From IMG/VR virus record IMGVR_UViG_3300033149_005336, positions 1-59,039 of that record: 59,039 bases of DNA. One strand, given 5' to 3'. Shown here piece by piece: positions 4,705 through 53,878 of the stretch; the first letter of the stretch is position 1; every line of letters starts with the position of its first letter. Both the position numbers and the translations under genes were made by a program. The notes under the pieces are model-generated. The model saw nothing but the letters and a program-made list of their open reading frames with translations. It ran no database searches and was not told the DNA's origin. This stretch comes from a virus (Duplodnaviria; Caudoviricetes).

Positions 4705-4973
4705 AGATGCTAACCAAAACAGAGCGGGAATTGCTAATGCAACTCCAATCCGACATTGAGCGATACTTGGGCTATCGCCGCTTGATCGCCAAGCGAATGC
4801 CAATCGAGGCGCCTATGCTCATCGACCACCTGACGCAAACGATGAGTCTGCGGAAGCTGGCCCGGAAGATCGACCGCTCGGCGTGCTACCTGTCGGCCGT
4901 CAGAACGGGGCGGGTGATCTGTTCGCCGGAAGTGTTCCTGCGGCTGATGAGCGTGTGGGAGAAAAGCTCATGA
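4701..4973 (+). CDS. HTH DNA-binding protein
   Basis: MSLRKLARKIDRSACYLSAVRTG XRE-like HTH. Confidence 0.75.
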   Translation: MKMLTKTERELLMQLQSDIERYLGYRRLIAKRMPIEAPMLIDHLTQTMSLRKLARKIDRSACYLSAVRTGRVICSPEVFLRLMSVWEKSS

Positions 4974-5464
4974 TGGTCTTAGGTATTGATCCCGGCAAAG
5001 ACGGCTATCTAGCCGCCTTGGACGACGGCGTGTTGTACGCCACCTGGCCGATGCCGACGATCCGTACCGGCAAGGGCAACCGTCGTGATTACGACGTGGG
5101 CAAGATGGCGGCCATTGTGGACGATCTGCGGCCCGGTCTTGTCGTGCTGGAAAAACAACAGGCGATGCCCGGGCAAGGTGTGGCCTCGATGTTCTCGACG
5201 GGTGTGGGGTTCGGCCTATGGTTGGGGATTCTGGCCGCCCTGAAGATTCGCTACGAAGTGGTCCATCCCCGCACGTGGCAACGGGCGCTTTGTCGAGACA
5301 TTGCCGGCGAGCCGAAGGCCCGGGCACTGATCGCCGCCAGACGATTGTTTCCCGGCGTGGACCTGCGCGGCAGTGAGCGGAGTCGCAAGGATCATGCCGG
5401 CAAAGTCGATGCCCTGCTGATCGCGTATTACGGGAGTATCCATCATGACCAGACTGATTTGTGA
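4970..5464 (+). CDS. RuvC-like Holliday junction resolvase
   Basis: VLGIDPG, VVLEKQ, GVASMFSTG, VHPRTWQ, DALLIA motifs. Confidence 0.9.
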   Translation: MMVLGIDPGKDGYLAALDDGVLYATWPMPTIRTGKGNRRDYDVGKMAAIVDDLRPGLVVLEKQQAMPGQGVASMFSTGVGFGLWLGILAALKIRYEVVHPRTWQRALCRDIAGEPKARALIAARRLFPGVDLRGSERSRKDHAGKVDALLIAYYGSIHHDQTDL

Positions 5465-5474
5465 CGAATGCGGC

Positions 5475-5687
5475 CACGAGCCGGAGGCGTTGTGAAAACC
5501 CGACACCCGTTGCGAGCCAGAGAAAGGGTGTGAAAACCAAATAAGCGATGCGAACCGAGGTGGTGTTGAAAACCAAAGCAATTATGCGAGCCAGGTTATA
5601 CATGAAACCCATATCGCCGTTGCGAGCCACACGCAAAATGAAAACCATTTTGTTCTTGCGAACCGAAGGGAGCAAGTATGAAAACCG
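5475..5687 (+). repeat. TIGR-like guide array, upstream part (5 full 36/38-nt units plus one half unit)
   Basis: Alternating edge repeats TGCGA(G/A)CC(A/G) and loop repeats TGAAA(A/C)CC(A/C/G) separated by unique, mostly 9-nt spacers. Confidence 0.93.
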
Positions 5688-6463
5688 ATGAAGTCAAACT
5701 GCTTGTCCGCGGCCTCTACGACGTGCAAAAGCTGCGTATCCAATTGCAGCTACGTATTGAGCGCCTGGTCCGCGACGAGATCGCCACAAAAGAACAAGCC
5801 GAGGCGTTCTTCAAGGTGCCGTTTGAGCATTTCACTACGGCAGAGAAACACATGGAAAAACAGGTCTGGCAATTGGTCAAGGACATGCCCATCGTCAAGG
5901 ATTGGCTACACTACGTCAAAGGAATCGGGCCGCGGTTGTCGGGGCTGTTGGTAGCGAATATTTATCCCATTGAACGGTTTGAGACGCCAAGTCGCCTGTG
6001 GGCCTATGCGGGGATGCACGTCATCGACGGTCGGGCCGTCAAGCGGAAATTGGGTGAGAAAGCCAACTGGAACGCGGAGTTAAGAGAAACGGTCTGGAAG
6101 ATCGGCTGTTCGTTCGTCAAGACAGACGGGGCCTACCGGAAAATCTACGATCGTTACAAGGCCCGCATCACCGAGCGGGAGTTGCAGCGCGGTACGTTGC
6201 GCTGGGAAGACACCGAGGAAGGGCCGCAACTGGTGGGAGTGAATCCCAAGGAAATGTGCCCCGGCCGTATCAACAATATGGCGATCCGCTATGTCGGCAA
6301 GTTGTTGCTCTCGCATTTGTGGCAGGTCTGGCGGGAAATGGAGGGGTTGCCGTGCCGGCCGATATACTGCACGGCATACCTGAACCACATGACCCATTTA
6401 AACCCTTGGGATTTCATTGAGAAACCCAGGCATAAGCAACGACAAAAACAGAGGGCAGGATAG
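5678..6463 (+). CDS. tasA: TIGR-associated Nop/IS110-like RNA-binding protein without a nuclease domain (TasA-like)
   Basis: Coiled coil (YDVQKLRIQLQLRI), HhH VKGIGP, RFETPSRLWAYAGM, YRKIYDRYK, AIRYVGKLLLSHLWQVWR; no N-terminal DEDD or HNH; embedded in the array. Confidence 0.88.
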   Translation: MKTDEVKLLVRGLYDVQKLRIQLQLRIERLVRDEIATKEQAEAFFKVPFEHFTTAEKHMEKQVWQLVKDMPIVKDWLHYVKGIGPRLSGLLVANIYPIERFETPSRLWAYAGMHVIDGRAVKRKLGEKANWNAELRETVWKIGCSFVKTDGAYRKIYDRYKARITERELQRGTLRWEDTEEGPQLVGVNPKEMCPGRINNMAIRYVGKLLLSHLWQVWREMEGLPCRPIYCTAYLNHMTHLNPWDFIEKPRHKQRQKQRAG

Positions 6464-6538
6464 CCACGTTAATCTTGAACCCCAAAATCGGGTTGCGAGC
6501 CATTGAAAATTTGGAAACCAAATGAGTTACGCGATTAG
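6458..6538 (+). repeat. TIGR-like guide array, downstream part (2 units)
   Basis: GGATAGCCA-cgttaatct-TGAACCCCA-aaatcgggt-TGCGAGCCA-ttgaaaatt-TGGAAACCA-aatgagtta-CGCGA, exact 9/9 spacing. Confidence 0.85.
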
Positions 6539-6632
6539 GCCCCGTGGCGGAATTGGTAGACGCTCTGGTTGTGAGCCGCTGCATTAGCAGAAAAGGCACT
6601 ACGTTTTGCAGGTTCGAGTCCTGCCGGGGCCG
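6538..6632 (+). ncRNA. tRNA-like RNA TL4 (Leu-type frame, defective anticodon arm)
   Basis: GGCCCCG-TGGCGGAATTGGTAGACGC...GCAGGTTCGAGTCCTGC-CGGGGCC; anticodon stem only 3 bp around TTGTGAG. Confidence 0.7.
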
Positions 6633-6649
6633 AAGAGATTGGGGCATCG

Positions 6650-6862
6650 TTGATGGAAACAGAATATGAATGCAAATCTTGTGGGAGAAAGAGATGGATT
6701 AAGGGTCGTCCCCAAGACGATGGTTGGGCTGAGATTCGCAACAACGAGGATCGATTTTACATGTGCGAATGGTGCTTTGGTAGGCGTTTTCACCGATGGT
6801 TCTACGGGCAATTGTATGAACCGTTATGGACGGGGTTTCCAGGACGGATAAAGGCGATATGA
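6650..6862 (+). CDS. Small Zn-finger protein
   Basis: CKSC...CEWC. Confidence 0.6.
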   Translation: MMETEYECKSCGRKRWIKGRPQDDGWAEIRNNEDRFYMCEWCFGRRFHRWFYGQLYEPLWTGFPGRIKAI

Positions 6863-7058
6863 AATAGAACTAAACAGGCCGGGCGAAAGTGTGAAACTAT
6901 GTCGTCCACTGTTATGGAGGTTCGATTCGTGAATGCAGGCAATGTGGAACTGGAAGGTTTCCACTATCCCCTACCTTTGCTTCCGACCTTGAACGCCCCG
7001 GGGCGGTCCCGGGGCGCCCGGCCTGAATAAATGGAAGCTATACGAAAGGAAAAAAGTC

Positions 7059-7417: not shown

Positions 7418-7690
7418 ATGAACCTTGACGCCAAATGGGAAGACTTCAAAACGCCAGAACAATGGCGGGAATGGTTGGACGTGGCCGCCAAGGAGGCCCC
7501 AGACCTGGCGGATTGGTGGACGACGGCTGAGGGCTGTGAAGGGTGTCGCTATTTTTCTCGTCATTACGTTTGGTGCATGTTGCACAGGGCTCCCGCTACG
7601 CGTAATCCCGTGCTCAATACGTTGGGAATGGCATGTTGTGGATTTGATTATATGCCTGCCGATGAACAAAAACTTGGGAGGCTCATGTGA
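7418..7690 (+). CDS. Hypothetical Cys-rich protein
   Basis: GAGG RBS; CEGC..C..CC. Confidence 0.65.
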   Translation: MNLDAKWEDFKTPEQWREWLDVAAKEAPDLADWWTTAEGCEGCRYFSRHYVWCMLHRAPATRNPVLNTLGMACCGFDYMPADEQKLGRLM

Positions 7691-8106
7691 TGTTTAACTT
7701 CATTGCTTGGTTTGAGTGTGATTCGTGCGGGAAGAAAGAGATTGCAAGGACCCTTGCGGGCTGCCGCGGCCTCCCCTGTGGGTGGGTGTCGGCAAAAGAC
7801 ACCGATGGGCGACCAACGGAACTGTGCCCCGGCTGCCAAGACTTATTGGTTGAATCGGAGCCGAAACCGAAACTGGAACCGGAAGTGTTGCCATGCAAGA
7901 TGTGTGGGGCTAGGCCGGTGGAAGGCAGTAATTCTCGTTTGCCTTTAAACTCATACCATCTTGCCTGCACGAGGTGCGGTATATCGGTTGATGGTCAATC
8001 ACATTCAACAATGGGTGAGGCGAGAGAAAAGGCTATTCAAGTGTGGAACCGCTTGATGAGCAAGGAACCAGTGAACCGCTGCCGCAATGAATTAGGAGAA
8101 CAGTAA
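7687..8106 (+). CDS. Zn-finger protein with C-terminal Lar (restriction alleviation)-like domain
   Basis: LPCKMCG...CTRCG...AIQVWNR pattern. Confidence 0.65.
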   Translation: MMFNFIAWFECDSCGKKEIARTLAGCRGLPCGWVSAKDTDGRPTELCPGCQDLLVESEPKPKLEPEVLPCKMCGARPVEGSNSRLPLNSYHLACTRCGISVDGQSHSTMGEAREKAIQVWNRLMSKEPVNRCRNELGEQ

Positions 8107-8108
8107 AG

Positions 8109-8465
8109 ATGATTAAATGGCAAGATATTGAGACGGCACCGAAGGATGGGAGTGCTATTCTTATATATGCCGATGGGTACGTATATGTCGCATGGTGGGA
8201 CAAACACTCGTTTGGATTCGGCACCGAAAGTGGGGAATTGATAAAGCCCACTCACTGGGTGCCTATTAATAAACCGGAGTCAGAAATCAAGCCATGTATG
8301 TTTTGTCACAAACGTCCTAGAACAGAGGAATTCAGTCATTGGTATCACATTGAATGTCAGAACTGTGGGATTGTTGTACGAGCAGTGCCTGGAGATAAAG
8401 ATAAAGTAATTGAAAGATGGAACCGCTTGATGGGCAAGGAAAATGGGATTCGTAGAAGGATATAG
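8109..8465 (+). CDS. DUF551-like plus Lar-like fusion
   Basis: WQDIETAPKDG...PTHW then KPCMFC...CQNCG...IERWNR. Confidence 0.75.
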   Translation: MIKWQDIETAPKDGSAILIYADGYVYVAWWDKHSFGFGTESGELIKPTHWVPINKPESEIKPCMFCHKRPRTEEFSHWYHIECQNCGIVVRAVPGDKDKVIERWNRLMGKENGIRRRI

Positions 8466-52636: not shown

Positions 52637-53626
52637 CTAGAGAGTATCTATCGCTAAATGAGCATAGACCTCCGTAGTCGTCACACTGGCATGTCCTAAC
52701 ATCTTGCTCAGCCGGTAGATGTCCCCGCCGCGCATGACGTACCATGAGGCGGCGGTGTGGCGCAGCAGGTGATAGCCGGTCCCCGTCCCTTTGTGATTGG
52801 CGGTGAACTTGGGGATCGCTTTGCGTAGGGGATTGATAAGGGCTTTCCATTGTTTTTCGCCCATCACGCCACCCCGCTCACCCGGGAAGACATATCCATT
52901 CGGCTGGCGAACGGCTTGCAGTCTGGCAGCGAGCCTGTAAGAGATCGGCACCACCCGGAACCGGCCGCTTTTGCTCTGGCGGACGGTAAGCATCCGCCGG
53001 CGGAGGTCTATATCTTCCCACCGCAAGTGTCGTAACTCATTGCTGCGTAAGCCCGTTTGCAGAGCCAGATACCACAACAGGACGGTCCCCTCGCGGATAC
53101 CCACCCGGTAGATGGCATAGACTTCCGGCATTTCCAAGAACCGAGGCGGTAGCTTTTCCTTGCGTGGCAGCTTGATCCGCCGGCATGGGTTCTGCTTCAG
53201 GTGCCCTTCGGTGATCAAGTGCTCGCAGAACAGACTGATGGCGGCACGGTACCCGTGGACGGTTGACGATCGATGTTTCTCGGCCAAGGACAAAAGGTAC
53301 TTCTGTAATTTAGGGGTGGTCAGGTCCTCCGGATACCTGGCTGGCAGGTCTCGAATGATGGCCTCACATCGCGCCTTGGTGTTGCGATAATGCTGGTGGC
53401 TGTGGACCGCCCGGCACGTATCCAGAAACGACTGTAACAACTCCTGTAACCGCGGACGAGGCGGCGGAGGGGTAGCGGCCACCTTGGCGGCTATTTTTTG
53501 GGCTCTGGCGAGGGCGACAGTCTTATGGGGCGTCTGGAGGGATTCGTAGCGCATGCAACCTGCGGCATCACGGTACTTTACCCACCAAAAACGGGTGCCT
53601 TTCCGTTTATAGATACACGGATTCAT
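52637..53626 (-). CDS. int: Tyrosine integrase
   Basis: TGLRSNEL, SKS, HLLRHT, LGHAS, VYAH catalytic residues; N-terminal arm-binding region. Confidence 0.96.
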   Translation of the reverse strand: MNPCIYKRKGTRFWWVKYRDAAGCMRYESLQTPHKTVALARAQKIAAKVAATPPPPRPRLQELLQSFLDTCRAVHSHQHYRNTKARCEAIIRDLPARYPEDLTTPKLQKYLLSLAEKHRSSTVHGYRAAISLFCEHLITEGHLKQNPCRRIKLPRKEKLPPRFLEMPEVYAIYRVGIREGTVLLWYLALQTGLRSNELRHLRWEDIDLRRRMLTVRQSKSGRFRVVPISYRLAARLQAVRQPNGYVFPGERGGVMGEKQWKALINPLRKAIPKFTANHKGTGTGYHLLRHTAASWYVMRGGDIYRLSKMLGHASVTTTEVYAHLAIDTL

Positions 53627-53627
53627 C

Positions 53628-53878
53628 GGTTACAGTTTTGGTGACAGTGGAAAAGTGACGTTTGTAACCCCTTGTGAATTATTACACCACCTAGGACTCG
53701 AACCTAGAACCCGCGGATTAAGAGTCCGCAAAGACATGTTTTGTAATCGCTGCTGAGATAACGAATTACAAGCGTTAACAACTGTCGCAGTTACAGTTAC
53801 GTCGCTTTTTCGGTTACAGTGGCGAAACGTAAAAAACCCCAAAAAACCTAAAAACCCCCGACTGTAACCGGTTACAGT
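53628..53878. repeat. Integrase arm-type sites
   Basis: (G/A)GT(T/G)ACAGT at 53628, 53640, 53789, 53812 and palindrome ACTGTAACCGGTTACAGT at 53861-53878. Confidence 0.75.
53683..53729 (-). other. attP core: 3' half of tRNA-Lys(CTT)
   Basis: GCGGA-CTCTTAA-TCCGC anticodon arm, CTAGG-TTCGAGT-CCTAG T arm, GTGGTGTA; no 5' half; next to int. Confidence 0.9.

Follow-up and report, generated by a model that had tools for sequence, protein, structure and literature searches.

A predicted dual-repeat TIGR-TasA locus in the early gene cluster of a probably temperate phage

The window analysed here is the whole of the virus record IMGVR_UViG_3300033149_005336 (Duplodnaviria; Caudoviricetes), which is 59,039 bases long. 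Between positions 5475 and 6538 it holds the gene tasA, which is predicted to encode a solo Nop-domain Tas protein, and on either side of this gene an array in which edge and loop repeats alternate with short spacers. The upstream array (5475-5665) consists of five units, each of which runs from the edge repeat through spacer A and the loop repeat to spacer B. Two further units (D1 and D2) were found downstream of tasA, at 6458-6538, in exact 36-nt register, with the D1 edge placed exactly 36 nt ahead of the perfect D2 edge at 6494. The features of the locus are as follows.

5475-5510, plus strand: unit U1, with edge CACGAGCCG, spacer A GAGGCGTTG, loop TGAAAACCC and spacer B GACACCCGT
5511-5548, plus strand: unit U2 (38 nt), with edge TGCGAGCCA, 11-nt spacer A GAGAAAGGGTG, loop TGAAAACCA and spacer B AATAAGCGA
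5549-5584, plus strand: unit U3, with edge TGCGAACCG, spacer A AGGTGGTGT, loop TGAAAACCA and spacer B AAGCAATTA
5585-5620, plus strand: unit U4, with edge TGCGAGCCA, spacer A GGTTATACA, loop TGAAACCCA and spacer B TATCGCCGT
5621-5656, plus strand: unit U5, with edge TGCGAGCCA, spacer A CACGCAAAA, loop TGAAAACCA and spacer B TTTTGTTCT
5657-5665, plus strand: closing edge TGCGAACCG of the upstream array
5657-5696, plus strand: pseudo-unit, made up of the closing edge, a 13-nt stretch AAGGGAGCAAGTA and the loop-like element TGAAAACCG, which is the TG of the tasA ATG together with the next two codons
5678-6463, plus strand: tasA, predicted 261-aa solo Nop-domain Tas protein
6458-6493, plus strand: unit D1, with degenerate edge GGATAGCCA (6458-6466, holding the tasA stop codon TAG), spacer A CGTTAATCT, loop TGAACCCCA and spacer B AAATCGGGT; a copy of the repeat family lies at 6474-6501
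6494-6538, plus strand: unit D2, with edge TGCGAGCCA, spacer A TTGAAAATT, loop TGGAAACCA, spacer B AATGAGTTA and the truncated closing edge CGCGATTAG (6530-6538)

The units are 36 nt long, with the sole exception of U2 (one of the seven), which measures 38 nt because its spacer A has 11 nt; all other spacers are 9 nt. The edge repeat reads TGCGAGCCA or TGCGAACCG, and it is altered at both ends of the locus: the first copy (CACGAGCCG) is degenerate, and the last (CGCGATTAG) keeps the 5' part alone. The upstream loop repeat is TGAAAACCA, with TGAAAACCC and TGAAACCCA as variants. All 14 spacers are preceded by CCN (CCA in 11 of them) and 13 of the 14 are followed by TG, and both repeats carry the box D and box C ends, UG...CCA. 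These ends arise on the plus strand only, the strand on which tasA and all of the neighbouring genes are encoded. The array is closely fitted to the genes around it. U1 begins 11 nt past the stop codon of the upstream gene (end at 5464), and tasA is embedded in its own array, its ribosome-binding site, start codon and stop codon all being located within repeat-like units; the likely ribosome-binding site, AAGGGAG, lies inside the 13-nt stretch of the pseudo-unit. No edge repeat follows the loop-like element of the pseudo-unit, which is therefore not a complete guide.

When the window was searched with the edge-N10-loop pattern TGCGARCC-N10-TGAAAMCC, allowing at most one mismatch, 4 matches were obtained, every one of them in this locus, and 100 dinucleotide-preserving shuffles gave 0 matches. 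Tandem Repeats Finder returned a period of 36 nt, and a repeat search recovered the repeat families of the array, including the 38-nt spacing at U2. The strict alternation of edge and loop repeats with spacers, as described in an initial annotation of this DNA, was thus borne out, and the five upstream spacer pairs listed there are present in the sequence exactly as written. Its statement that nearly every spacer is bounded by CCN and TG agrees with the counts given above. The 36-nt unit that it proposed holds for every unit except U2, and the array is now refined to five upstream and two downstream units.

The tasA product (261 aa) has a single Pfam match, PF02371 (Transposase_20, E 1.3e-5), and no DEDD or HNH family was reported in it by Pfam (for DEDD, none at E <= 10). 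In phmmer searches against the PDB, the protein matched chain 9mty_A (TaTasR) with E 2.4e-27, query residues 39-163 being aligned with chain residues 141-262, and SpTasH with E 2.5e-13 over query residues 40-243, in an alignment running from TasH residue 105; IS621 was matched with E 0.45 only. The entry 9MTY was deposited by Faure et al. 2025 (Science, PMC12045711) as their TasR; systems of this kind were first described in 2025. Given that the alignments begin at TasR residue 141 and TasH residue 105, the nuclease parts of these proteins have no counterpart in the tasA product, in which about 38 residues precede the aligned region. Judged from its sequence, the tasA product is without a nuclease domain and is a genuine TasA, homologous to the solved TasR and TasH over the Nop domain. 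It also matches PHROG 4285 over nearly its full length (E 7e-45).

The structural comparison led to the same relatives. An AlphaFold2 model built on 27 relatives had a mean pLDDT of 91 and a pTM of 0.84, and the monomer model has long N-terminal helices at residues 3-32 and 46-67, as expected for the coiled-coil part of a Tas protein. When the model was compared with the PDB by Foldseek, all of the ten best matches were TasR or TasH chains (E 1.7e-12 to 9e-10; TM 0.6-0.7); IS621 and ISCro4 came next (E about 1e-5), and the match to Nop5 was weak and partial (1nt2_B, E 0.99, 99 columns). A two-copy prediction of the TasA complex scored 0.40 against a mark of 0.42, and it was used as evidence neither way. 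The open reading frame (ORF) is intact and full length, and the alignment of 27 sequences, which includes this protein, has 18 invariant columns, kept here by definition. In the phmmer alignment, Y230 and H237 of the tasA product fall opposite Y289 and H296 of SpTasH, the catalytic residues of a metal-independent cutting of pre-tigRNA (PMC13421893). A C-terminal Tyr/His processing pair is a conserved trait of dual-repeat systems according to Xu et al. 2026 (bioRxiv 10.64898/2026.09.09.750476). Among the 27 aligned sequences, H237 is conserved at 90% or more, and Y230 is Tyr in 23.

Three kinds of described Tas system bear on the locus. The first is FpTIGR/FpTasA of Flavonifractor plautii which, as described by Faure et al. 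2025, is likewise phage-borne and has a solo Nop-domain protein without nuclease, array on both sides of the gene, edge repeats that alternate with loop repeats around 9-nt spacers at a period of 36 nt, UG...CCA repeat ends, and truncated or degenerate end edges. This likeness is one of description and not of FpTasA sequence. The present locus differs from FpTIGR/FpTasA in that its array is short (5 + 2 units), in that it has no terminator and is abutted by a tRNA-like gene instead, and in that the ribosome-binding site, start and stop codons lie inside repeat-like units. The nuclease-bearing TaTasR (9MTY) and SpTasH (9W03, 21KL and others) have a homologous coiled coil and Nop domain, but each has a RuvC or HNH nuclease at its N terminus and cleaves both strands of the DNA, whereas the tasA product has no such domain. 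The nuclease-free MbTasA of Xu et al. 2026 is the best experimental model for the probable function of the tasA product; it comes from a Minisyncoccota bacterium, and it is likened here by description rather than by sequence. Set against the box C/D small nucleolar ribonucleoproteins (Nop5, Nop56/58), whose Nop protein recruits fibrillarin and, along with L7Ae, binds K-turn snoRNAs, and to which the fold match is weak and partial, the repeats here are compact and without K-turn flanks, as is the case for tigRNAs according to Faure et al. 2025.

Taken together, the locus is very probably a dual-repeat TIGR-TasA system that a temperate phage carries among its early genes on the plus strand. The evidence here consists of the array anatomy, the homology and fold of the protein, the absence of a nuclease, the processing residues, and the repeat conserved beside relatives. 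Every defining feature that can be read from DNA was found, except the typical terminator, and the locus therefore belongs to the known dual-repeat TIGR-TasA kind; it is a clear example of a known system and nothing new in kind. This agrees with the initial annotation, which had proposed a TIGR-Tas-type system: the protein is homologous to TasR and TasH, and the array layout, the period and the box ends are as described by Faure et al. 2025. The Nop-type fold without DEDD or HNH nuclease, also proposed there, is supported alike by Pfam, phmmer and Foldseek, and in the structure and profile comparison that it suggested, TasR and TasH ranked ahead of IS621/ISCro4 and Nop5. Its remark that little is understood of what a TasA without nuclease does has been partly overtaken by the finding that MbTasA represses under tigRNA guidance (Xu et al. 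2026).

Processing of tigRNAs, dimerisation, dual-strand binding and repression are inferred for this locus from published work on other Tas proteins. On that analogy, both arrays and tasA would be transcribed rightward, probably within a polycistronic early transcript. TasA, predicted by homology to be a dimer, would grip both kinds of repeat, edge and loop, at their UG (box D) and CCA (box C) termini and would cut the precursor in the middle of the edge repeat by means of its own Tyr230 and His237, and this processing could yield up to seven guides (tigRNAs) of about 36 nt. In each guide, the two spacers would pair with opposite strands of the DNA, spacer B on the 9 bp next to those paired by spacer A, so that a target would read 5'-A-(0-2 nt)-revcomp(B)-3', where revcomp denotes the reverse complement, and no protospacer adjacent motif (PAM) would be needed. 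This geometry is expected because TasR, as reported by Faure et al. 2025, leaves 8-nt 3' overhangs and tolerates a gap of 1-2 bp. The complex would bind and bend the DNA without cutting it, given that TasA has no nuclease domain, and a bound site would be blocked for transcription or replication. MbTasA is reported to bind target DNA and to repress a reporter and a chromosomal gene reversibly in E. coli, in a guide-dependent manner and without cleavage (Xu et al. 2026). The same authors catalogued 20,096 tas loci and 6,685 arrays, and Faure et al. 2025 describe TasA as the commonest Tas effector, with 5-15 units as the usual size of an array. TIGR-Tas systems are compact, PAM-free, RNA-guided DNA binders and are of current interest for genome engineering.

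To place the locus among its relatives, a large protein search (cut-off E <= 0.001) was used, which returned 121 TasA homologues; the best of these are 45-67% identical to the tasA product and mostly 257-300 aa long. A set of 27 related loci was compared, 7 from genomes and 20 from viral contigs (19 contigs, as L001 and L014 lie on the same one). An array was counted when its edges were within 1 mismatch of TGCGAGCC, with 34-38 nt between edges, at least 3 units, and UG...CC loops. Such arrays, with the edge TGCGAGCC, adjoin tasA or lie inside it in 19 of the 27 loci and reach 16 units; none was found in L001/L014, L006, L008, L015 (one unit) or L025-L027. The common edge repeat of this tasA clade offers a simple handle in searches for more arrays. 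The named genome hosts of the relatives are mainly Planctomycetota (a Planctomycetota metagenome-assembled genome (MAG), Sedimentisphaerales, Planctomycetales and Phycisphaerae), together with one Polarisedimenticolia MAG and two archaeal MAGs. A Planctomycetota host for the present phage is therefore plausible. A literature search on TasA and tigRNA together with Planctomycetota gave no paper.

Some of the homologues (P0002, P0004, P0006, P0007, P0010 and P0013) carry within the protein an extra stretch whose ASQ...ETQ motifs recur about every 12 residues, a pattern that arises because the edge repeat (ASQ) and the loop repeat (ETQ) give these motifs when translated. The insert in the coding sequence of these relatives sits where the tasA product has a short beta hairpin, and in two loci the array lies inside the tasA match (L005:170-322 and L007:237-389). 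Intragenic arrays are known and are rarer among dual-repeat than among stem-loop arrays, according to Xu et al. 2026. The longer homologues were also considered as possible nuclease-fused close relatives; P0004, P0006 and P0013 proved to be longer through internal low-complexity inserts and not through N-terminal domains, and none of 10 further long homologues had a nuclease family in Pfam (E <= 0.001).

The locus is part of a tightly packed cluster of genes, all on the plus strand, that extends from 3040 to about 8465. The order in this cluster is a replication initiator-like gene (phrog_9474), two small ORFs (one with a weak helix-turn-helix match), a RuvC resolvase gene, the upstream array, tasA, the downstream array and a tRNA-like gene. 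The neighbouring features and the integrase gene are listed below.

4970-5464, plus strand: RuvC-type Holliday-junction resolvase (phrog_1770, E 5e-31; the closest solved structure is chloroplast MOC1, E 2e-11)
6538-6632, plus strand: tRNA-like gene, 95 nt (ARAGORN, tRNA-His(GTG); Rfam tRNA, 39 bits against a gathering score of 29)
7687-8106 and 8109-8465, plus strand: two adjacent genes for Lar-like restriction-alleviation proteins (PF14354, E 3e-7 and 2e-7)
52637-53626, minus strand: tyrosine integrase (PF00589, E 4.6e-24)

The TIGR locus thus lies in an early region that also holds likely anti-restriction genes. The tRNA-like gene directly abuts the last edge repeat; its acceptor stem and T arm fold, and its middle is without a clean anticodon arm. 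It might possibly mark the 3' limit of the array transcript or direct its processing. Among the 22 related loci that were scanned, none had a tRNA abutting the array. The arrays and tasA are probably co-transcribed with the early cluster. Elsewhere in the window, a 3' fragment of tRNA-Lys(CUU) was found within 52637-53739 on the minus strand (Rfam partial match, 23.9 bits; CUU anticodon loop, no D arm), 57 nt from the integrase gene. As this fragment adjoins a tyrosine integrase gene, it is likely the attP core, which makes a temperate life style with integration into a tRNA-Lys gene probable for this phage. The locus is a clean case in an apparently complete temperate phage genome that has both an integrase and a tRNA-Lys attachment fragment, so that, with the host in hand, the seven guides could be examined in the setting of a known life cycle.

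Several observations weigh against a working TIGR-TasA system at this locus. No sigma-70-like promoter was found between 4500 and 7200, and no terminator adjoins the arrays (near 5665 or 6538); the four terminator-like sites returned by the scan are at the level of shuffled sequence, and none of them adjoins an array. According to Faure et al. 2025, dual-repeat arrays end typically, not obligatorily, in a Rho-independent terminator. Some of the units may be inactive, given the small size of the array, the degenerate first edge, the 38-nt unit and the greater degeneracy of the repeats downstream. Among the sequencing runs listed for this DNA none is of RNA, and repression has been established for a different TasA only, in E. 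coli. The target searches also count on this side. When the window was scanned for its own targets in either spacer order with gaps of 0-2 nt, 0 sites were found at <=3 mismatches, and at <=4 mismatches the 12 sites compare with 14.8 +/- 4.8 for 100 shuffled spacer sets. Against 378 kb of related phage DNA, the spacers gave 11 sites, where the shuffled mean was 14. The search for spacer A joined to the reverse complement of spacer B, which the initial annotation had put forward as a way to its targets, therefore yielded nothing above chance in either set. The use against competing elements or host genes that it inferred is possible, with no target found here.

The same scan was applied to five related whole phage records (G405-G409), whose 53 units gave 0 self-sites at 0-1 mismatch; at <=3 mismatches, 3, 14, 10, 7 and 8 sites were found in the five records, against shuffled means of 2.0, 8.0, 4.3, 3.6 and 7.7. 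By the window scan, the present phage does not target itself. As to the composition of its spacers, their GC content is 40.6% against 59.0% for the window, and among 13 relatives the spacer GC tracks that of the carrier, yet lies below it in 11 of the 13. This is only a hint; it would agree with targets that lie in genomes of a composition like the carrier's, possibly at sites richer in AT.

Other readings of the locus were weighed against the TIGR-TasA one. It is conceivable that at least one guide, U3, is directed to the site in the host tRNA-Lys(CUU) gene where the phage itself integrates. TasA would then bend or occupy this site under RNA guidance and so assist integration or excision, or it would keep rival phages away from it. 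The tRNA-Lys fragment beside the integrase gene has, directly ahead of its discriminator base, the same 9 nt as U3 spacer A (AGGTGGTGT; 53684-53692, minus strand). Beyond a gap of 2 nt, 5 nt agree with the reverse complement of U3 spacer B; the order, A and then revcomp(B), is the one to be expected from the reported geometry of cleavage, and a host flank could supply the rest of the match at attB or attR. In addition, Faure et al. 2025 speculate that TasA could aid phage integrases through DNA bending. However, this match covers 14 of 18 positions and is one of the 12 such sites in the window, a number no higher than that of shuffled spacers (14.8 +/- 4.8); it is special by location only and was noticed after the fact, the chance that one of the 12 sites falls on the tRNA-Lys fragment being roughly estimated at 1-2%. 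The four mismatches are positions 1-4 of spacer B and include a seed position, by our mapping of the data of Faure et al. 2025 onto the spacer. The 24-mer at the 3' end of the tRNA is absent from metagenome_contigs and viral_contigs, and the 3' 21-mer is absent at <=1 mismatch from a sample of 401 genomes in the phylum to which G001 belongs (the source genome of L002, titled a Planctomycetota MAG) and at <=2 mismatches from the 4 genomes behind L002, L003, L005 and L007. The exact full U3 target had 75 matches in metagenome_contigs, which was judged to be roughly chance level, and in none of the 75 was a tRNA T arm placed directly ahead, as an att core would require. One of them (L065) has a T-arm-like motif about 30 nt upstream, the match lying ~14 nt beyond the 3' end of another tRNA, and chance would allow this. 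A literature search pairing tigRNA with attB gave genome-engineering reviews only. If U3 did act on the attachment site, the flank of the host tRNA-Lys(CUU) gene would read (0-2 nt)TAATTGCTT, and this would be the first natural target and role for a TasA; we regard it as unlikely. It is also quite unlikely that the locus is a decaying remnant, that is, a shrinking copy of TIGR-TasA that no longer functions. The 5 + 2 units, against up to 16 in relatives, the degenerate first edge, the 38-nt unit, the degenerate downstream repeats and the missing terminator would be in keeping with decay, but the ORF is intact and full length with the Y/H pair present and the 18 invariant columns kept (by definition), the model is a confident one (pLDDT 91), 5-15 units are usual according to Faure et al. 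2025, and tasA persists, about 95-98% identical, in a close relative of the phage from one sample.

The remaining readings concern the proteins. A split nuclease, in which the RuvC-type gene at 4970-5464 would be the detached nuclease half of a TasR that cuts the DNA found by TasA, is suggested by the position of this gene, which ends 11 nt before the array on the same strand, by the nature of TasR as a RuvC-Nop fusion (Faure et al. 2025), and by the presence in 3 other contigs (4 loci: L001/L014, L011 and L012) of a RuvC homologue no more than 4 kb from tasA. Against this, the gene is an ordinary phage Holliday-junction resolvase that matches phrog_1770 over its full length; its best solved relatives are MOC1 resolvases, with no match to the TasR structure 9MTY even at E <= 10, and a RuvC homologue is absent near tasA in 23 of the 27 loci and elsewhere varies in position, being found upstream at 2 kb or downstream. 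On the resolvase family match, the lack of a 9MTY match and the inconstant neighbourhood, the idea was rejected as very unlikely. As for an IS110-family transposase fragment with chance repeats nearby, the names speak for it: the Pfam domain is called Transposase_20, and PHROG and several GenBank phage records label relatives 'transposase'. IS621 and ISCro4 do share PF02371 and an RNA-binding C-terminal fold with the tasA product, but they are 328-341 aa long against 261 aa and use a single bridge RNA, whereas tasA adjoins a guide array. The product, for its part, has no reported DEDD domain, its match to IS621 (E 0.45) is far behind that to TasR (2.4e-27), and it has no serine at residues 106-140, where we take the IS110 catalytic Ser motif to fall. 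Chance falls far short of explaining the repeats, and one and the same repeat accompanies relatives as well. The protein matches, the repeat statistics and this recurrence refute the transposase reading, which is left with a practically negligible probability; the tasA product is not an IS110-family member.

More distant TasA-like genes were seen in 86 GenBank phage records, 83 of which are mycobacteriophages; among the 30 records listed, the identity is 26.6-32.1%, and the genes are mostly annotated as hypothetical protein or transposase. In the phage collection, no close relative of the present genome was found, the search giving two 47-nt matches only. Contigs of a related phage, with tasA about 95-98% alike, were found in three runs (X1-X3) from one sample of one study. 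Its tasA differs at 3 of 153 and at 21 of 481 positions, and its array is not colinear with the present one: each of the three runs has a joint from 5519 to 5620, and the 6494 edge is preceded by another unit. The regions of the window concerned are 5483-5620 and 6494-6996. This fits a turnover of array content between close relatives, on the evidence of contigs from a single sample. The related phage also has a joint that skips 6559-6995, which comprises most of the tRNA-like gene and the next ORF.

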